A stretch of 64,000 bases of DNA from positions 1,664,001 through 1,728,000 of the forward strand of contig CAWFXA010000002.1 in assembly GCA_963819655.1 (NCBI GenBank). Direction: 5' to 3'. Of this stretch, positions 39,146 to 48,545 are shown piece by piece. The notes beneath the pieces were generated by a model. That model saw nothing but the letters and a program-made list of their open reading frames with translations. It did not search any database and was not told the DNA's origin. Numbering within the stretch: position 1 is the stretch's first letter; each line of letters opens with the position of its first letter. The translations under genes and the position numbers were made by a program. The DNA comes from an uncultured Chloroflexia bacterium. Its GTDB lineage: Bacteria; Chloroflexota; Limnocylindria; Limnocylindrales; CSP1-4.

Positions 39146-40804
39146 TTATCGCGCGGCCGCGGCTGGGCTCGGGGCGACCTCGGCCGGGGCGGCCTCCGCC
39201 CGACTCGAGTAGGCCATGCTCTGGATCGAAGCAAACCCGCCGACGTGCGCGGAGACGATAACCACCACACGATCAGAAGAGGCTGCAATGTCTGAGCCGA
39301 TGTACTCATCCGCATCCGGCATCGTGGGCAGACCGCTCTCCCGTCGCCAGGCGACACCGTCGTCGCTCCGCCACAGCTCGAGATCGAACGCTCCTTGGCT
39401 TTGATCCACTCTCGTGCCGATCGCGAACTGTTGCCCGCGGCTGGATGCGATCGCCTCCAGAGCGGGTGCTCCTGTCACGGCGACCGACGTCCACCCGGTG
39501 CCTTCAGTGGATGTCACGGCGACACCTAAGCAGTCTGGCTGGCAGATCGAGCCGACGGCGATGAGTCCAGCTGCGCCGACCGCGACACCAGACAGGTAGC
39601 CGTCGAAGTCCAGTCCCGCATCCGCGCGACGCCACGTCAGGCCATCGAGCGAGGTCCAGGCCGCAGCCCGACCCGGGCCGGCGGCACCGTTCATGGCCCG
39701 GCCCACGGCGACGAAGCCCGTAGGCGTGGACGCGACATCGAGCATCCCGCCACAGGTCGGCTCTTCGCCCGTGTCGAAGCACAGCCCGACGTCCATGTCA
39801 TCGGAGTCCGTGGCACGGGTCCAGTCGACGCCGTTGGGTGAGGTCCACGCCGCAGCGTGCGCCGGCCCCAGTTGCCCATCCCCAGCAAGCGTCTGCGCGT
39901 AGCCGGCCATGACGTAGGCCCGATCGTCTGCCGTGATCGCGACGATCGGGCTGGAGAACCGATCGATGATGCCCGGCCCGAGATCGAGATGGACGCGCTC
40001 CCAGATCTGCCCATCGGCCGATCGCCAGACCGCCGGACCGCTCGTACAGGGGGCGACGGCACAGGCGGAACGTGGCGGGTTGTAGTCATATCCAACGGCG
40101 ACGAGGCCGGCCGGACCGTTCGCTACGTCGTAGATGGACCTCTCCGGCCCGCTTGTCGGCACCGAGAGGCCCATCTCGAGGCCGGGCTGGTTGGGGGCGG
40201 CGGTCCAACCCGCGCCGCCCACATCCGTCCAGGCGGCTCCGTAACAGGCGGTCGGGTCGCTGAAGTTCGGGAGGCATTCACCGCGGCCTACACCGACAAC
40301 GGTGGTTCCAGCGATGGTGACAGCCGAGATGTAGCGCCCCGTCCCACTGTCCTCGATCCCATGCGCCTCCCATGTCTCGGCGATCGTGGCCGTGGGAGCC
40401 GCGGGCCGGGGAGTGACGACGGCCACCGGCGGCGTCCGTATCACCGTCGTCGGCGGGTCGTTCTCAGCCGCGCGCCGGAGATAGGAGCCGACGGCGCTGG
40501 CCCCGAGGATCGCTACGAGGGCGAGGACCGCGGCGGCCAGGAGGACGTACCGCTGGGACCTGCCGCTCTGGCGGGAGATCGTAGCCGCGACCGCCTGATC
40601 GACCCGGCGGCTGGGCATCAAGTCGAGCGGCTGGGCGAGATCGAAGGCGTCGGTCCGCATCGCAGCTGCGGTGCGCGCGCAGGCGGGACACCCGGCGAGG
40701 TGGGTCTCGAGCTCGGCGGCCTGTGACGCCGTCAATGGGCCATCGATGGCGCTCGCAGCGAGCTCCAGCGTGCGGTCGTGGATGCGGCGATCAGCGAGAG
40801 TCAT
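39146..40804 (-). CDS. Zinc-finger (HxxxCxxC) anti-sigma factor with extracellular beta-repeat domain
   Basis: HLAGCPAC, single TM, repeated W.S.DG..W motifs; coupled to ECF sigma. Confidence 0.82.
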   Translation of the reverse strand: MTLADRRIHDRTLELAASAIDGPLTASQAAELETHLAGCPACARTAAAMRTDAFDLAQPLDLMPSRRVDQAVAATISRQSGRSQRYVLLAAAVLALVAILGASAVGSYLRRAAENDPPTTVIRTPPVAVVTPRPAAPTATIAETWEAHGIEDSGTGRYISAVTIAGTTVVGVGRGECLPNFSDPTACYGAAWTDVGGAGWTAAPNQPGLEMGLSVPTSGPERSIYDVANGPAGLVAVGYDYNPPRSACAVAPCTSGPAVWRSADGQIWERVHLDLGPGIIDRFSSPIVAITADDRAYVMAGYAQTLAGDGQLGPAHAAAWTSPNGVDWTRATDSDDMDVGLCFDTGEEPTCGGMLDVASTPTGFVAVGRAMNGAAGPGRAAAWTSLDGLTWRRADAGLDFDGYLSGVAVGAAGLIAVGSICQPDCLGVAVTSTEGTGWTSVAVTGAPALEAIASSRGQQFAIGTRVDQSQGAFDLELWRSDDGVAWRRESGLPTMPDADEYIGSDIAASSDRVVVIVSAHVGGFASIQSMAYSSRAEAAPAEVAPSPAAAAR

Positions 40805-41376
40805 GCCTGATCCTCCGCGGCATCGAGGAGCTTACGCAGCTGGACCCGGGCGCGGCACATGAGTGTCCGGGTGGCGCCCTCGGTCCGGCCGATCGAGGCG
40901 GCGATCTCACTGCCGGCGAAGCCATGGGCGGCGAGTAGCAGGGCCGCTCGTCCGTCTGGCGCGAGAGCCGCCAGGGCGACGTGGAGCTCGGAGTCCCCCT
41001 CGACCCGGAGGGTCTCGCCCTCCGGGCGTATTGGCTCGCTGCGATCGACGAGACGTGGCAACAAACGGGTCAGACTTGCCCGGCGGCGTGAGCGGCTGAT
41101 CGCTGCGTTGGAGGCCGTCCGGTAGAGCCATGGCCGAATCCGATCGGGCATCCGTCCGGCACGGGCCTCGCCGATCAAGCTGATGAAGGTCTCCTGGAGG
41201 ATGTCCTCAGCCGCCTCACGGTCGCGCGTCATCCGGAAAAGAAAGCCAAGGATCTCTGATCGGCTGTCCTCGTAGACGGCAGTCAGGGTGAGGTCATCGG
41301 CGCGCCCGCCCCGCCGCGGCCGCTCGAGGGCCGGTCGCTGTTCGGCGGGCTTCACGGGCGCCGGCATCTCGGTCAC
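40801..41376 (-). CDS. ECF RNA polymerase sigma factor
   Basis: AEDILQETF, WLYRTASN, EIA...GATRTL..RAR. Confidence 0.92.
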   Translation of the reverse strand: MTEMPAPVKPAEQRPALERPRRGGRADDLTLTAVYEDSRSEILGFLFRMTRDREAAEDILQETFISLIGEARAGRMPDRIRPWLYRTASNAAISRSRRRASLTRLLPRLVDRSEPIRPEGETLRVEGDSELHVALAALAPDGRAALLLAAHGFAGSEIAASIGRTEGATRTLMCRARVQLRKLLDAAEDQA

Positions 41377-42943: not shown

Positions 42944-43917
42944 CCGCGGCCGACGCGATCAGCCGGTCCGTTGGCGCGTGGCTGGAGACGCTCGATCGCG
43001 ACCAGCGGTCGCGAGCCGTGTTCCCGTTCGACACCGGCGAGCGCATGATCTGGGCGTACACCCCCGGAGAGCGCGCGGGCCTCGCGCTGGCGGACATGCG
43101 ACCCGGTCAGCGAACTGGCGCCATGCGGATCGTCGCCGCGGCCATGAGCGAGCGCGGCGCACGGGAGGTCGCGGACATCATCGCCCTCGAGACGATCCTC
43201 GGGGCGCTCGAGCAGGAAGGGGGTCGCGGCGGCTGGCTGCGGCGCGACCCGGAGAAGTACTGGTTCGCCGTCTTCGGCGACGCGGCGGGCGACGAGCCAT
43301 GGTCGTGGCGGATCGGCGGGCACCATATCGCGATCCAGCTGACGCTCCTCGGGCAGCGGGTCGTCGGCAGCACACCGTCGTTCCTGGGCGCCAACCCGGC
43401 GGTCGTCCCGAGTGGCCCTCGTTCTGGCGCGCGAGCGCTCACCGGGGAGGAGACACTCGCCCGCGAGCTGTTGCTGAGCCTGCCGCCGGATGTGCGGGCC
43501 ATCGCGGTGGTCGATCCCGTCGCACCGCCGGACATCATGAGCGGCAACGGCGCGCGCGCCGACATGCGCTCGATCCCGAGCGGGATCCGCTACGACGCAC
43601 TCGGGCGCGCCGAACAGGAAGGGCTGGAACGGCTGATCGGCCTCTACGTCGGGCGCGTGGCGGAGGACATCGCTGCGGCCGAGTGGGCGCGGATCGAAGA
43701 AGCGGGGCTCGGCGCGACGACGTTCGCGTGGGCGGGCCCGGCGGAACCGGGTCGCGGCCACTACTACGCGATCCGCGGGCCCGAGTTCCTGATCGAGTAC
43801 GACAACACCCAGAACGACGCGAACCACATCCACGCGGTCTGGCGCGACCTGACGAACGACTGGGCTGCAGACGCCTTGGCGGCGCACTACGGTTCGCATC
43901 ACGCGCGCGGCTCATGA
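42940..43917 (+). CDS. DUF3500-like protein
   Basis: WSWRIGGHH, FLGANP, IEYDNTQNDANHIHAVWRD recalled for this family. Confidence 0.8.
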   Translation: MTAADAISRSVGAWLETLDRDQRSRAVFPFDTGERMIWAYTPGERAGLALADMRPGQRTGAMRIVAAAMSERGAREVADIIALETILGALEQEGGRGGWLRRDPEKYWFAVFGDAAGDEPWSWRIGGHHIAIQLTLLGQRVVGSTPSFLGANPAVVPSGPRSGARALTGEETLARELLLSLPPDVRAIAVVDPVAPPDIMSGNGARADMRSIPSGIRYDALGRAEQEGLERLIGLYVGRVAEDIAAAEWARIEEAGLGATTFAWAGPAEPGRGHYYAIRGPEFLIEYDNTQNDANHIHAVWRDLTNDWAADALAAHYGSHHARGS

Positions 43918-44009
43918 CGTTGGCACTCAGGTCGTAGACTCGGTTCCGGTCTGCGGCTCTCCGCGCGGTGCCTACCGTTCGGATCGGCCTCGGACGAGGG
44001 AGGTATGCC

Positions 44010-44294
44010 ATGTTCGGGATCTTCGGGGCGATCCTGCCCAGGTTCGCGTTGCTGGCCGGCTGGTACAACGATCCAACCTATTGGAACGCCGTCTTCGGTT
44101 CGCAGCTGTTCCTGCTGCTCGGCTTCGTCGCGCTGCCCTGGACGACGCTCATCTATGGCCTGGTCTCCCCGAACGGCCTCGGCATCGTCAACATCATCTT
44201 CCTTCTGCTGGCCGTGCTGGCCGACCTCGGCACCTGGGGCATCGGCATCTTCGCGGCGCGCAAGCAGACCTCGAGTTCGTACCGGGGGACCTGA
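44010..44294 (+). CDS. Small membrane protein (94 aa)
   Basis: GGAGG RBS; hydrophobic; PR...LGFVALPWTTL motif. Confidence 0.75.
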   Translation: MFGIFGAILPRFALLAGWYNDPTYWNAVFGSQLFLLLGFVALPWTTLIYGLVSPNGLGIVNIIFLLLAVLADLGTWGIGIFAARKQTSSSYRGT

Positions 44295-44368
44295 CCCGCG
44301 ATCGGCCAGCCGGGGCGACGGGTCATCCGCCGGCCGCGCGCTTCTTGGTCCCGCCGTACCATCCGCTG

Positions 44369-45912
44369 ATGCTTGGCGGTGATCGTCCTGGGTCGCCCTG
44401 CTGACGCGGATCCCGCTGCACCCGCTCCTGTTCGCCGCGTACGCGGTCCTGTTCCTCTATTCCGCGAACCTCGCCCTGGTTCTTCCCGTCGACGCGGCCG
44501 CGCCGGTGGCTCGGGCCGTGATCGCTGCCGCGTCTCTGACCGCCTTCATGGGGCTGGTCCTCCGCGACGTCCGTAAGGGGGCGATCGTCGCGTCGGCGGT
44601 CGTGATCGCGTACTTCGTGTTCGGGCACGTCCGGGGGTTCCTGTCCGGTCTCGGCCTGGGTGACGCGGCCCAGCTCGGACTGTGGGGCGTCGTCGTGGCC
44701 GTGACGCTCTTCCTCGCCGCGCGCGCGTCGGCGAGATTGCCGCAGGCGACCGCTGGACTCAACGTATTCGCGATCGTCCTCGTGGTCATCGCCACCGCGA
44801 CGATCCTGCCGTACGAAATCACTCGTGCTCGTCGGGAGCCGATCGCACACGCGGCCCCCATCGCCGCCGCAACCGGCGCCGCGCCGGGGCGTGACATCTA
44901 CTTCCTGGTCTTCGACCGATACGGCTCGGCAGACGCCCTCGAGCGCCGCTTCGACATCACCGACAACGACCTGTACGGCTGGCTCGAGGAGCGCGGGTTT
45001 CACGTCCCGTCGAGCAGCCACGCGAACTATCGGGCCACGGACTTCTCACTGGCAGCCACGCTCAACATGCAGTTGTTGGACAACCTGACCCGCGAAGTCG
45101 GCCGCGACTCCGACGATCGGACGGCGGCGCAGGACATGATCCGGGAGCACGAGGTTGGCCGCTTCCTGAAGTCGCAGGGATATCGCTACTACCAGATCGG
45201 ATCCTGGTACGGCCCGTCCCGTTCGATCGAGATCGCCGATGAGAACCTCGTGTACGGCGTGGCCAGCGAGTTCGAGTCCGTCTTGAACGACCTGACCATC
45301 ATGCCCGCGATCGACCGCGTCCGTGGGGTGGTGAGCCGCGAGCCGACGTTCCGCGACCGCCATCGGGAGGGAAGCTTGTTCGCGTTTCGTCAGTTGCGCC
45401 GGGTGGCGACTGCGCCGGGCCCGAAATTCGTGTTCGCGCACATCCTCCTGCCACACGACCCTTACGTGTTCAAGGCCGACGGCTCGCCACTGTCCGAAGA
45501 GGAAGCAAACGGCGCGCCGGAGCCACAGCTCTACGCCGATCACCTCGCGTATGCCAACTCGCAGATCAAGCAGATCGTCGGCCAACTGCTCGCTGGCCCC
45601 GTGGAGACCCGGCCGATCGTGATCATCGAGGGCGACGAGGGGCCGTTGATGTGCCGGTCCGTGGACTGCGTGACGAGCACGGGGGAATATCTGCGGATCC
45701 GGCTCGGGAACCTGGTCGCGATGTACCTGCCGGGCGTGGACGCAGTGATTCCCGACACGTTCACCTCGGTCAACACCTTCAGGGTCGTGTTACGTGAATA
45801 CTTCGGCGCCGAGCTTGAGCCACTTCCCGATCGCAGCTTCACGTGGCCCGACAACGATCACATCTACGACTTCAGGGACGTGACCGACCAGATCGTTGCA
45901 TCGGGCGAGTGA
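44369..45912 (+). CDS. Membrane-anchored alkaline-phosphatase/sulfatase-superfamily protein (NoeB-like); 5' end apparently frameshifted near 44396
   Basis: About five TMs from HPLLFAAY (44401+), then YFLVFDRYG, NY..T..SL, HILLPHDPY, GDEG; in-frame stop at 44380 and no canonical start until 44506. Confidence 0.78.
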
Positions 45913-45972
45913 TGCGAATTCCTTTCCCGCGGTATCCTCCGGTCCTTCCAGATCCGAGCCTGGAGGTCCGAG

Positions 45973-46156
45973 CATGTCCCCATTCCTGGCGTACATCGAC
46001 CCCGGCTCAGGCAGCCTGATCATCCAGGCGGCAATCGCGGCCGTTATCGCCATCCCGATCTTCTTCCGCTCGCAGATCGCTCGCGCGATACGGGCGCTTC
46101 GGCGCTCTGAGGAGCGCGAGCCAACAAGCGGGGATGACGCTGCCACCAAGCCTTGA
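45973..46156 (+). CDS. 60-aa single-TM micro-protein with AYIDPGSGS motif
   Basis: GGAGG RBS; MSPFLAYIDPGSGSLIIQ + hydrophobic helix + basic stretch. Confidence 0.85.
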
Positions 46157-47577
46157 CCTGCACGACGCCGTCGCGCGGCACGTCGTCGGCACATCTGACG
46201 GTCGTGACGGGGCGTCGTTCCGTGATCCGAGTGGGTTCGTCTTCTGGCGCGATGGTCAGCCATACCGCCAGATCCAGCGAACATTCGCGACCGAGTGGGA
46301 TGCGTTCGAGGCAAGCGCGCTCAAGCCGCGGCTCATCGACCAGCGACGGCTGATCGGGCATGAGCCGGCTGGTCTCGACCTTGCGGCGGCGCCAGGCGCA
46401 CACGCGGTCATTCGACCCGAGCGGATCGAGTTCATCAGTTATCCCTACGAGTGGACGTTCGGCGAGCTGCGCGAGGCCGCGCTACTGACGCTCGATATCC
46501 AGCTCGAGGCCATGGCTGTCGGCTGGACCCTCAAGGATGCGTCGGCCTACAACATCCAGTTCCACGAGGCCCGCCCGATCCACATCGATTTCGGCGTCGT
46601 TCGAACCGCTCGACGATGGCGCGCCGTGGATCGCCTACCGCCAGTTCTGCGAGCAGTTCCTGGGGCCGCTCGCGCTTGCCGCAAGGCGCGATGTTCGGCT
46701 CTCGGACCTGCTCCGGCTCGGCCCCGACGGGATCCCGCTCGATCTGGCGAGCCGGCTGCTGCCGTGGCGGACGCGGTTCGAGTTCGGGCTCCTCTCGCAC
46801 GTGCATCTCCATGCTCGAGCCCAGATTCGTCACGCCGCGAACCAGGAAGAGAACGGGCGGCAGGCGCGGAACGCCCGACTCCCCCGGGCGCGCCTGGAGG
46901 GGCTCATCCGGAATCTCCGCTCGACCGTCGCGGGGCTCGACTGGCACCCAGGCGGGACGGAGTGGGCCGACTACGCCGAGCACACGAGCTACGGCGACCG
47001 GGCGGCGGCGGACAAGGACCGCCTGGTCGACGGGTTCGTGCGCGAGGTGCCAGGACCGCGCATGTGGGACCTCGGCGCCAACACCGGTCGCTTCAGCCAG
47101 ATCGCGGCCGACGCGGGCAAGCGCGTCGTCGCCTTCGACATCGATCAAGCGGCTGCCGAGCGTCACTTTCGGGCGGTCCGCCAGGCGGGGCGAACCGATA
47201 TATTGCCGCTCGTCGCCGATATCGCGAACCCGAGCCCGGCACTCGGCTGGGCCGGACGCGAGCGGCGCTCGCTCCTCGAGCGCGCCGACGCGGATGCGAT
47301 CCTCGCGCTCGCCCTCGTCCACCACCTCGCGATCGCCCGGAACGTGCCGCTGCCGATGGTGTTCGACCTGTTCGCAGACCTTGCTCCGTGGGCGATCGTC
47401 GAGTTCGTGCCCAAGGACGACCCGATGGTCCGGCGGCTCCTGGCGACGCGACGTGACGTCTTCGCCGGCTACGACCTGGACGGGTTCCGTGTGGCCGCGG
47501 CGACTCGTTTCGTGATCGTCCGAGAGGCGCCCATAGCGGACAGCGTCCGAGTGCTGTTCCTGCTGCGCCGCCGCTGA
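46134..47577 (+). CDS. NoeA-like kinase-fold/SAM methyltransferase fusion, split by one extra base near 46590
   Basis: First frame: SFRDPSGFV, SYPYEW, LKDASAYNIQF, HID; second frame: SFEP..W.AYRQFC, WDLGANTG, ALVHHL, EFVPK. Confidence 0.82.
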
Positions 47578-47657
47578 TCCCGCGACAGGCCGATCGGCAT
47601 GGAACGTTCAGACCCCCACCGACGACTACTAGCTAAGCGCGAGAAACCGCCGCGCCG

Positions 47658-48545
47658 CTATTCGTCCTCGGCAGCCGCCGCCGCGTCCGCTGCGCCGGCC
47701 ACGCCACGAGGTTCCTTGCCCTTCGGCCAATACAGCTCCTTCTTGACCGCGGTCTCCGGGAGACCGAGCCCGAGCAGGGTTTCCTCGGCGGCAAGGATCA
47801 TGTCCGGGTTGCCGCACAGGTAGGCGATCGTGTCGTCGGGCCGGAGGCCCAGGTCCGCGAACACCGGCGCGACAACGGACTCGGCACGGCCCGTGCGTCC
47901 GGTCCAGTCCGCATTGGACGGATCAGTCGGTCGCGAGACGGTCGGCACGAACGTCACCGGGTACTCCCCGCTGGACTCCCAGCCCTCCAGCAACTCCCGG
48001 TAGCCCAGATCGCGGACGTGGGACACGCCATTGATGAACACTGCTCGTCGCGGCGTCCCGTCGGCCAGCATCTGACGCATCATCGACACGAACGGCGCGT
48101 TGCCCGTCCCCGATGAGATGAACAGGTGCGTCCGGTCGTCATCGGGCTCGAGCAGGAACTTGCCCTTCGGCCCGATCATCCGCATCCGCTGGCCGGTCGG
48201 CAGGTCCCACAGCACCGGAGTGAACGTCCCGCCCTGGACGAGCCGCAGATAGAACTCATAGCCGGTCGACCCGGCCGCGTTCGGCGGCGACGCGACCGAA
48301 TACGGCCTCTGGACGATCTTCCCGTCGACGAAGACGCCGATCGTCATGTATTGCCCGGGCTCGAACGGCGTGGGGTTCTCGTCGAACTTCACCCAGAAGT
48401 AGCCGAGGCTGTCGTGCTGATCGACGCGATCGATGAGCGTCGCGTTGTAGCGCTCGTCATCGGTCGCGATCTCACCGGTCGGAGCGTCGCTCGGGGCTGC
48501 GGCTGTGGCGGCGTCTGGGGCTGTGGTCGGGGCCGTCTCGGTCAC
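47658..48545 (-). CDS. Ferredoxin-NADP+ reductase family flavoprotein
   Basis: FEPGQY, RPYSVAS, SGTGNAPF, YLCGNP, ELYW. Confidence 0.92.
   Translation of the reverse strand: MTETAPTTAPDAATAAAPSDAPTGEIATDDERYNATLIDRVDQHDSLGYFWVKFDENPTPFEPGQYMTIGVFVDGKIVQRPYSVASPPNAAGSTGYEFYLRLVQGGTFTPVLWDLPTGQRMRMIGPKGKFLLEPDDDRTHLFISSGTGNAPFVSMMRQMLADGTPRRAVFINGVSHVRDLGYRELLEGWESSGEYPVTFVPTVSRPTDPSNADWTGRTGRAESVVAPVFADLGLRPDDTIAYLCGNPDMILAAEETLLGLGLPETAVKKELYWPKGKEPRGVAGAADAAAAAEDE

Follow-up and report, generated by a model that had tools for sequence, protein, structure and literature searches.

A NoeA/NoeB-type three-gene locus in a Chloroflexota genome and the microprotein that almost constantly accompanies NoeA-like genes

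The rhizobial genes noeA and noeB have been known as host-range genes since 1995 and lack a biochemical function; the portions of the literature available to us record a host-range phenotype and no chemistry (PMC9048898, PMC4053727). A survey published in 2022, on the pan-kinome of Legionella, reported NoeA/NoeB relatives in more than a thousand species (PMC9758233). In the available portions of that paper, the Legionella protein Lani_1194 is described as a kinase-like N-terminal domain (N-domain) joined to a methyltransferase domain, with NoeA named as its homologue, and NoeB, for which an alkaline phosphatase (AP) fold is predicted, is named as the homologue of the neighboring Lani_1195. The two-domain architecture was retained in 94% of about two thousand Lani_1194 homologues, and among 816 neighborhoods Lani_1193 was a conserved same-strand neighbor in 65% and Lani_1195 in 38% (PMC9758233). 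This study analyzed a 64,000-nucleotide (nt) stretch of DNA, referred to in its entirety as the window, from an uncultured Chloroflexia bacterium (assembly GCA_963819655.1, contig CAWFXA010000002.1, positions 1,664,001 to 1,728,000 of the forward strand), in which a NoeB-family gene, a microprotein gene, and a NoeA-like gene follow one another on the same strand. The main text of PMC9758233 does not describe a protein of 60 amino acids (aa) and does not state the nature of Lani_1193, which may be the microprotein described here; in a full-text search, the name Lani_1194 was found in that paper only.

All three genes lie on the plus strand. Gene 1 (44383-45912) encodes the NoeB-family membrane protein in an open frame of 509 codons, counted from stop to stop. 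Gene 2 (45974-46156) encodes the 60-aa microprotein and is preceded by a GGAGG at 45962-45966, which reads as a Shine-Dalgarno-like element 7 nt upstream of its ATG. Gene 3 is found in two pieces, the first (46134-46589) comprising NoeA-like residues 1-152 with the first part of the proposed kinase-like domain, and the second (46591-47577, with the stop at 47577) comprising the remainder of the N-domain and a class I S-adenosylmethionine (SAM) methyltransferase domain. The start of gene 3 at 46134 overlaps the 3' end of gene 2 by 23 nt. An earlier sequence-only reading of this DNA had reported three consecutive same-strand genes and a set of motifs; all of them are present at verified coordinates, except that the frame of gene 3 is interrupted and that 44357, where the cassette had been made to begin, is not a start codon.

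We read the locus as a representative of the NoeA/NoeB module, in which three conserved parts would act together to place a phosphate-containing group on an envelope glycan or lipid, and we assign this reading a probability of about 0.5. The pair of large genes and the kinase-like reading of the NoeA side are already in print (PMC9758233), and the copy in the window is an ordinary member of the module in a new phylum. New with respect to the literature consulted are the microprotein family, how large it is, and what signature it carries, along with three facts about its gene: that it is part of the classical nod operon, that it is linked almost constantly to NoeA-like genes, and that it associates more widely with enzymes of the AP superfamily. 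Annotation pipelines have left this third component unnamed; it comprises at least 14,205 representative clusters and carries a nearly invariant 12-residue signature. The microprotein gives the noeA/noeB question a handle, namely a gene of 60-70 residues, a short motif, and a defined set of three proteins.

Part of the evidence for this reading comes from two surveys of gene neighborhoods. The survey that started from NoeA used one genome per species and returned at least 589 NoeA-like loci, of which the best 80 were used. In 73 of the 80 loci, a peptide gene immediately preceded the NoeA-like gene in the same orientation; the peptide was directly downstream in one further locus, the order was peptide-AP-NoeA in another, and two loci were cut too short to tell. 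No peptide match occurred anywhere else among the 12,245 open reading frames (ORFs) of these loci. The motif is also present on the Sinorhizobium meliloti plasmid pSymA, in a 71-aa ORF that lies between nodL and noeA, is annotated as a hypothetical protein, and shares 23 nt with noeA. Of 121 Chloroflexota genomes drawn evenly, 10 had a NoeA-like gene, and the peptide was directly upstream of it in all 10; in other phyla, five of five genomes had exactly one peptide gene, at the NoeA locus.

The second survey was a metagenome scan that started from the peptide, using the motif AYLDPGTGS alone; it yielded 522 confirmed loci, of which 80 were kept and 67 had at least 400 nt downstream. Directly downstream of the peptide, 59 of these 67 loci had a NoeA-like gene and four had a sulfatase-family (AP) membrane protein, and the last four had a nucleotidyltransferase-methyltransferase fusion, a TagF-like glycerophosphotransferase, a GmrSD fragment, and a transposase. 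The locus with the fusion is L195 (2298-3969), and that with the TagF-like CDP-glycerol glycerophosphotransferase is L223 (4923-6390). Where enough sequence was available (31 loci), a same-strand AP-like gene came next in 28, which is the order seen in S. meliloti. The sequence-only reading had staked its proposal on the peptide co-occurring with these enzyme families, and both surveys bear this out.

The link to AP-family genes was looser and took more forms. An AP-family gene lay within 4 kb in 53 of the 80 NoeA-first loci. Each of five genomes lacking an adjacent AP gene carried a NoeB-like gene elsewhere, without a peptide of its own; four of these distant copies were full-length, and that of G170 was in pieces with stop codons. 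Pairs of a peptide gene and an AP-family gene without a NoeA-like gene were found as well (L009, L011, and L152-L155), and in two loci of the genus of the window the peptide stood directly before a distant AP paralogue. Six peptide hits in Chloroflexota lay away from NoeA-like genes: two adjoin NoeB-like genes, two, which carry a Y-I-D-P-x-x-G-G variant, adjoin Phosphodiest and Sulfatase genes, and two are weak and motif-less. The Phosphodiest and Sulfatase partners are other branches of the AP superfamily. In L154 (3980-6001) and L155 (4034-8199), from genomes without a NoeA-like gene, an M-Y-I-D-P-x-x-G-G variant stands directly before a Phosphodiest (PF01663) and a Sulfatase (PF00884) gene. 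These findings show that the three families travel together, that the closest tie of the peptide is to the NoeA-like gene although it may also accompany AP-family enzymes alone, and that the microprotein is an overlooked, almost constant third partner of the NoeA/NoeB module. Glycan genes, namely Capsule_synth, GT2, and a TagF-like gene, adjoin the module in other genomes. Three Anaerolineae-type loci without an adjacent AP gene have proteins of about 340 aa with no Pfam match, on the same strand after the NoeA-like gene (L051 4063-5076, L071 5363-6385, and L078 5423-6472), and L066, L080, and L096 have same-strand ORFs of 341-347 aa at the same place.

We then considered the microprotein itself. 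The extent of its family was determined with a profile of 64 peptides (alignment A5, whose first row is the peptide of the window) searched against 1.84 billion proteins, which returned 14,205 representative clusters at E ≤ 0.001 and 5,422 at E ≤ 1e-10. The best 150 of the 14,205 clusters, a sample that favors the closest matches, were 52-161 aa long and shared the signature Y-[LI]-D-P-G-[ST]-G-S-x-[ILV]-[LIF]-Q, with the Tyr, the Asp, the second Gly, and the Gln present in all 150, the Pro and the Ser in 149 each, and the first Gly in 147; a basic stretch follows the helix in these 150. The leader before the Tyr had at least 15 residues in 114 of the 150 and 2-14 residues in 36; the last leader residue of the long-leader forms was mostly Ala, often within A-x-A, and forms that start with M-Y were present among the genome loci. 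In gene 2, a leader of 6 residues precedes the YIDPGSGS motif (45992-46015), and the motif is followed by a single membrane helix (about 46016-46072) with the invariant Gln18 (46025-46027) and then by a basic and next an acidic tail. Pfam and NCBIfam scans of the 64 peptides gave no family that matched more than four of them, with a best E-value of 0.011, and a full-text literature search for forms of the signature found nothing relevant.

Judged from these sequences, the long leader would be a signal peptide that is cleaved just before the Tyr, at an A-x-A signal-peptidase-like site in Gram-negative-type members. The predicted topology is N-out and C-in, placing the motif at the outer face of the membrane and the basic tail in the cytoplasm. 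Two unusual members were noted: P0364 (161 aa) carries two full tandem copies of the motif-plus-helix unit, and P0361 (78 aa) has a partial additional copy of the motif.

A small gene that lies directly upstream of, and overlaps, the gene of a modifying enzyme also invites another explanation, in which the microprotein is a substrate that the NoeA-like enzyme phosphorylates, methylates, or both before export, in the manner of a precursor peptide with its tailoring enzyme; the conserved motif, rich in Ser, Thr, and Tyr, could be the modification site. Against this, there are loci in which the only neighbors of the peptide are AP-family, TagF-like, or nucleotidyltransferase-methyltransferase genes, and its conserved membrane helix, which contains an invariant Gln, suggests a protein that stays in the membrane. 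We therefore regard a substrate role as highly improbable. No fusion of the peptide with a NoeA-like or AP-like enzyme in one ORF was found among the 166 peptide hits in the loci examined, a result that is neutral for this explanation.

Gene 1 had been assigned in the sequence-only reading to the AP superfamily in the manner of LtaS and EptA, and structural comparison supported the assignment by revealing an AP fold behind an N-terminal membrane domain. Five N-terminal hydrophobic segments (about 44410-44829) correspond to five long helices in the AlphaFold2 (AF2) model, which has a mean predicted local distance difference test (pLDDT) score of 92.8. They are followed by the DRY motif (44914-44922), Thr219 (45037-45039), the PHDP motif (45451-45462), and the GDEG motif (45631-45642). 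A Foldseek search with the model matched full-length MCR-1 (9nww_B; E 4.7e-7, 576 columns) and full-length EptA (5fgn; 582 columns), in both cases over the membrane and the soluble parts; E-values for MCR-1 and EptA were about 1e-6, with TM-scores of 0.37-0.45 and identities of 10-15%. Further matches included the periplasmic domains of EptC, YejM, and LtaS, and sulfatases. A PDB sequence search with the gene-1 profile produced one chance membrane match only.

The relation of gene 1 to NoeB was not detected by tblastn at E 1e-5 and was evident in profile comparison, in which S. meliloti NoeB aligned to the gene-1 profile with an hhalign probability of 98.8% (E 8.7e-17, 359 columns). Two motif blocks, FAH..PH.P and GD[HE]G, fall within the alignment together with the conserved Thr, and T219 of gene 1 is placed on a Thr of NoeB. 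In the alignment of 62 gene-1 sequences, T219, H353, D418, and G420 were invariant; both gene 1 and the consensus read GDEG, a block of which only D418 and G420 were invariant. The order of the motifs suggests that Thr219 occupies the nucleophile position. Pfam Sulfatase scored gene 1 at 20.8 bits, below its cut-off of 25, and an NCBIfam scan of the three genes added nothing to Pfam. A sulfatase assignment was considered and rejected, as the conserved residue is a Thr and a pattern search of gene 1 found no C/S-x-P-x-R formylglycine motif; the absence of this motif together with the invariant Thr219 places gene 1 among the Thr-nucleophile phosphotransferases rather than the sulfatases. The AP domain is predicted to work outside the cell because it follows five helices with basic loops on alternate sides. 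By homology and fold, gene 1 is a NoeB-family protein of the EptA/MCR-1/LtaS build, with five helices and an outward AP-fold domain.

The comparison for gene 3 was made mainly with P0001, an intact homologue of 480 aa that is 95% identical to it. In tblastn, P0001 matched records annotated as noeA at 38% identity over residues 23-479 of 480 (95% of the length, E 4e-61); a search against plasmids gave 65 matching records, 57 of them from Sinorhizobium. The resemblance to NoeA and NoeB that had been noticed from the sequence alone is, by these values and by the profile match of gene 1 to NoeB, real homology. The AF2 model of P0001 (pLDDT 91.9) gave 871 Foldseek matches at E ≤ 0.001, and all those among the matches listed were methyltransferases, many with E-values of 3e-8 to 1e-6. 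The methyltransferase domain of WbdD (4azs) ranked fourth (E 1.2e-7, 226 columns). Pfam Methyltransf_12 matched the C-terminal part of gene 3 at E 3.3e-5, and every Pfam methyltransferase model remained below its cut-off. The glycine-rich motif I, DLGANTG (47068-47088), contains D312, G314, N316, and G318, which were invariant in 87 NoeA-like sequences. The invariant motif and the Foldseek matches support the earlier view that the C-terminal half is a class I SAM methyltransferase. A search of PDB sequences with the NoeA profile recovered the SAM-binding stretch only, and WbdD chains matched this profile at positions 296-330 only, with E-values of 0.5-0.75. Homology and fold place gene 3 in the NoeA family, as a cytoplasmic enzyme with two domains.

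The nature of the N-domain was less clear-cut. Its DASAYN stretch lies at 46536-46553 and its ID..SF stretch at about 46584-46602, with D152 at 46587-46589. In the 87 NoeA-like sequences, D135 and N140 (D-x4-N), R30, and R45 were invariant and D152 was conserved in at least 90%; in 59 N-domains (alignment A6), D135, N140, and D152 were all invariant. The model places these three residues after a long helix and around a beta-hairpin, in the positions expected of a kinase catalytic loop and a metal-binding Asp. The D-x4-N...D pattern is consistent with a kinase and is not specific to one. Pfam gave no match for the N-domain of gene 3, and comparison with the ESM Atlas returned unnamed clusters only. 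No kinase appeared among the Foldseek matches listed, which came from a search with the whole model and were dominated by the methyltransferase domain. The kinase-like label proposed for this domain comes from the published analysis of the family (PMC9758233) and draws also on the invariant pattern.

The frame of gene 3 shifts after Asp152, where the window reads GAT TTC GG and P0001 implies GAT TCG G. A run of TTT at 46589-46591, with one surplus T, disrupts the frame in the assembly; intact homologues have TT. Four short-read metagenome runs were compared with the stretch, and three of them, from three studies (X1, X5, and X6), cover 46589; one base is absent at this position in all covering contigs, one of which differs from the window by just 2 other letters in 179. 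Because the short-read contigs of relatives do not have the extra base, the assembly has most likely miscounted the homopolymer here, and the module is therefore probably intact in the organism. Breaks or stop codons in NoeA-like, NoeB-like, or peptide genes were also seen in the relatives L002, L007, L022, L085, and G170 (C7:49260-50744). Some relatives with broken module genes are assemblies of very few contigs, and the broken genes fit frequent indel errors of those assemblies. A second departure, at position 44312 in a G run of the spacer 5' of gene 1, is of a similar kind: one base is missing in the covering contigs of X1, X5, and X6 and in L017, and the surplus G of the window is a probable second error of this type in the assembly.

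The head of gene 1 is a different matter. Position 44357 does not open the gene; the nearest ATG (44369) opens an 11-codon frame (44369-44404, plus strand) of the ML-GDRPGS type, which is -1 relative to the frame of gene 1 and whose TGA overlaps an ACG of the gene 1 frame (44404-44406) as TGACG. The first canonical in-frame start is the GTG at 44506, which would delete the conserved first membrane helix. The same arrangement was found in two short-read metagenome-assembled genomes (L017 and L021) and in a long-read one (L023), and the arrangement is therefore taken to be real rather than an assembly error; short-read contigs aligned to this region show no insertion or deletion. The upstream codons are conserved at the protein level in relatives; some homologues have the 11-codon stretch fused in frame with gene 1 (P0244), and one homologue (P0242) begins with a Met at the position of the ACG. 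The TGACG overlap may be a site of stop/restart coupling or a non-AUG start. A programmed -1 frameshift was also considered, and inspection of 44383-44401 by eye revealed no slippery heptamer. As judged from the letters, a stop/restart overlap is favored over a programmed frameshift.

Both defects stand in the deposited sequence, and a reader may conclude from them that the locus is decaying, with gene 3 truly frameshifted, the start of gene 1 lost, and the module non-functional in the organism. We consider decay most improbable. The extra T is missing from every covering short-read contig of the three runs, similar breaks occur in related few-contig assemblies (L002, L007, and G170), and the start arrangement of gene 1 is common to relatives whose upstream codons are conserved as protein.

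Under the reading of an intact NoeA/NoeB module, the three products would be arranged on and across the membrane. The NoeA-like enzyme would work inside because it needs ATP and SAM and has no export signal. With this enzyme inside, the AP domain outside, and the peptide spanning both, a membrane-spanning subunit is the simplest reading of the microprotein. The microprotein would then be a structural subunit that holds the NoeA-like enzyme at the inner face by its tail, and the NoeA-like enzyme would phosphorylate and methylate a lipid-anchored substrate or make a lipid-borne phospho-donor. The outer motif and the helix of the microprotein would pack against the NoeB-like enzyme, which would form a phospho-Thr intermediate and pass the phospho-group on to an external acceptor. 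The transferred group could be methyl-phosphate, as the analogy with WbdD suggests, or something else.

The sequence-only reading had suggested predicting a complex of the peptide with each enzyme. With gene 1, the peptide scored 0.59 (0.61, 0.57, and 0.59 in the individual runs), and all three controls scored 0.00; the runs agreed in at least 73% of contacts, and the partner pLDDT was at least 68. In the calibration, whose counts hold only roughly because the prediction used alignments of our own, 58 of 80 solved complexes and 2 of 110 mismatched pairs attained the passing mark, and scores that passed at 0.60 or below came from only 7 of the 80 solved complexes and from both of the passing mismatches. 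Of the roles that the sequence-only reading had offered for the peptide, that of an essential subunit draws weak support from this prediction.

The same prediction bears on a second explanation, in which the microprotein is a membrane recruiter only. In this case, the tail would hold the NoeA-like enzyme at the membrane, the NoeB-like enzyme would act in the same pathway without being touched, and the outer motif would serve insertion, dimerization, or another partner. The tighter linkage to NoeA than to AP genes (73 compared with 53 of the 80 loci), the 23-nt stop/start overlap with the NoeA-like gene both in the window and in S. meliloti, and the persistence of the peptide beside the NoeA-like gene when the AP gene lies elsewhere all favor a recruiter, and a precedent is available in BcsF, which recruits the cytosolic BcsE and makes no contact with BcsG in the account available to us (PMC11470070). 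The predicted outer motif, not the tail, is nevertheless the most conserved part of the peptide; peptide genes stand directly before AP-family genes in genomes without a NoeA-like gene; and the predicted complex of the peptide with the AP enzyme exceeds the best control (0.59 against 0.00), although this last point is weak. On balance, we hold a pure recruiter to be unlikely, although it is the main rival of the structural role.

The invariant Tyr in the best 150 clusters and the fixed 8-residue motif at the membrane surface call to mind a covalent shuttle as in DltX, whose invariant Tyr passes D-alanine between DltB and DltD (PMC12148441). In such a shuttle, the Tyr or a Ser/Thr of the motif would transiently carry the phospho-group from the donor side to the AP enzyme. 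A kinase could not reach the motif after insertion, however, because the motif is predicted to be outside and the ATP- and SAM-dependent enzyme inside; this predicted separation also disfavors the covalent carrier that had been among the roles first proposed for the peptide. The motif is unlike that of DltX and lies at the opposite end of the peptide. AP-family transferases, moreover, already form a phospho-Thr intermediate of their own. Taken together, these points make a shuttle improbable.

A broader version of the structural role would make the microprotein a general third subunit of extracytoplasmic AP-superfamily transferases. Its outer Tyr motif, bared by signal-peptidase cleavage, would sit in the active site or carry the phospho-group, and the Gln-containing helix and the tail would couple the transferase to a cytoplasmic enzyme that makes the donor, which may be a NoeA-like kinase-methyltransferase, a nucleotidyltransferase-methyltransferase, or a TagF-like enzyme. 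We regard this broader version as quite doubtful. If the microprotein proves to be a subunit of EptA/LtaS-type enzymes, it would bear on how envelope phospho-modification is coupled across the membrane; if the general version holds, it would provide a new principle of transmembrane coupling and a mechanism for host-range genes, noeA and noeB, that are 30 years old.

Several findings weigh against the reading of the locus as a phospho-group-transferring NoeA/NoeB module. Those that concern the N-domain come from sequence and profile searches: hhalign comparison with the APH and Pkinase alignments gave probabilities of 0.1-0.2%, in a setting where the control comparison of APH with Pkinase itself gave only 22.9%; the N-domain profile had no match in the PDB; and Pfam on the 59 N-domains remained at chance level (RIO1 in 1 of 59, E 0.12; Pan3_PK in 1 of 59, E 0.14). 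For gene 1, the family has GDEG in place of the GDHG of NoeB and most AP transferases, which may alter metal binding or mark a loss of catalysis; lost catalysis has been proposed for some AP-family members. If the extra T is real in the strain, gene 3 is broken there. As for the surveys, the peptide gene was missing in 3 of the 78 assessable NoeA-like loci, and 27 of the 80 NoeA-first loci had no AP-family gene in the flanks examined. A complex score in the band obtained here is more often wrong than right unless the pairing is likely beforehand, and the prediction, which lends weak support, reported no contacts by which the motif could be placed at the active site. The acceptor pathway is not visible at the locus in the window because its neighbors are housekeeping genes. 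Finally, NoeA and NoeB are without known biochemical function, and the available text of a 2022 genome paper still calls a Nod-factor modification "hypothesized" (PMC9048898); and in BcsE-BcsF-BcsG, the closest solved analogue, the small peptide does not touch the AP-family enzyme according to the portions of PMC11470070 available.

The surroundings of the cassette were examined as well. The guanine-plus-cytosine content of the window is approximately 69%. The cassette is flanked by genes for a class II tRNA synthetase, an FNR-like reductase (on the other strand), and pyruvate phosphate dikinase, and it stands alone in the window. In 43800-47900, a promoter scan found no promoter-like site, and a terminator scan found one hairpin (45896-45917, at the end of gene 1 and before gene 2) against 1.4 expected from shuffled sequences, which is chance level. 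Homologue searches gave 406 of 408 candidates for gene 2, 816 for gene 1, and 6,996 of 8,000 candidates scored for gene 3, numbers that speak against a chance occurrence, and wherever the source gives a name the nearest homologues of all three genes belong to Candidatus Limnocylindrales (Chloroflexota). Just 5' of the cassette lies a hydrophobic ORF of 108 aa (43968-44294) with no Pfam match; its C-terminal residues are identical in L017, and the ORF was not seen beside the cassette in other phyla. Farther upstream, on the minus strand (39146-41376), the gene after that of an ECF-type sigma factor (Sigma70_r2/r4_2) encodes a protein of 551 aa that carries a zf-HC2 anti-sigma motif.

The module of the window can be set beside several known systems. 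WbdD, the chain terminator of the Escherichia coli O9a antigen, is a single protein made of a kinase and a class I methyltransferase, the combination proposed for gene 3, and phosphorylation followed by methylation is the logic of the sequence-only reading. The domain order of WbdD is reversed. The sequence match between WbdD and gene 3 is limited to the SAM-binding stretch, and we know of no partner microprotein or AP-family enzyme for WbdD. Fig. 6D of PMC9758233, one of the parts available, sets the domain arrangement of Lani_1194 beside that of WbdD and includes a coiled coil. EptA, MCR-1, EptC, and LtaS are like gene 1 in having N-terminal membrane helices, an outward AP-fold domain, and a Thr at the nucleophile position, and they differ from it by the usual GDHG, which is replaced by GDEG in gene 1. 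To our knowledge, none of these enzymes needs a microprotein or a cytoplasmic kinase-methyltransferase.

Two further systems contain a membrane microprotein. In DltX, an invariant Tyr lies within a short outer-face motif that is conserved, and the protein is part of a three-protein complex, as far as the available text of PMC12148441 describes it; its FXYXXF motif is C-terminal and carries an acyl group, whereas the motif of gene 2 is N-terminal and different. The partners of DltX are an MBOAT protein and an SGNH protein, and no sequence relation of DltX to gene 2 was seen. The BcsE-BcsF-BcsG operon, responsible for phosphoethanolamine-cellulose in E. coli, combines a cytoplasmic protein, a single-pass microprotein, and an AP-family membrane transferase, and the cytoplasmic tail of BcsF recruits the soluble partner BcsE, according to the same available portions of PMC11470070. 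The peptides of the present family matched neither the BcsF family nor any other Pfam family, and BcsE is a cyclic di-GMP sensor, whereas gene 3 is a two-domain enzyme.

The Legionella pair Lani_1194 and Lani_1195 was compared with the genes of the window through the homology to NoeA only. The nearest counterpart is the nodL-noeA-noeB region of S. meliloti pSymA, which has a full-length homologue in NoeA, a profile homologue in NoeB, and a microprotein gene that overlaps noeA by the same number of nucleotides as in the window. The S. meliloti operon also has nodL and a nod box, neither of which is found at the locus in the window, and its NoeB has GDHG, whereas the gene-1 family reads GDEG. 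Before the Tyr of the rhizobial peptide stands a leader that resembles a signal peptide and ends in A-H-A, in contrast to the 6-residue leader of the peptide in the window, and the genes are arranged as peptide-noeA-noeB in S. meliloti and as AP-peptide-NoeA-like in the window.

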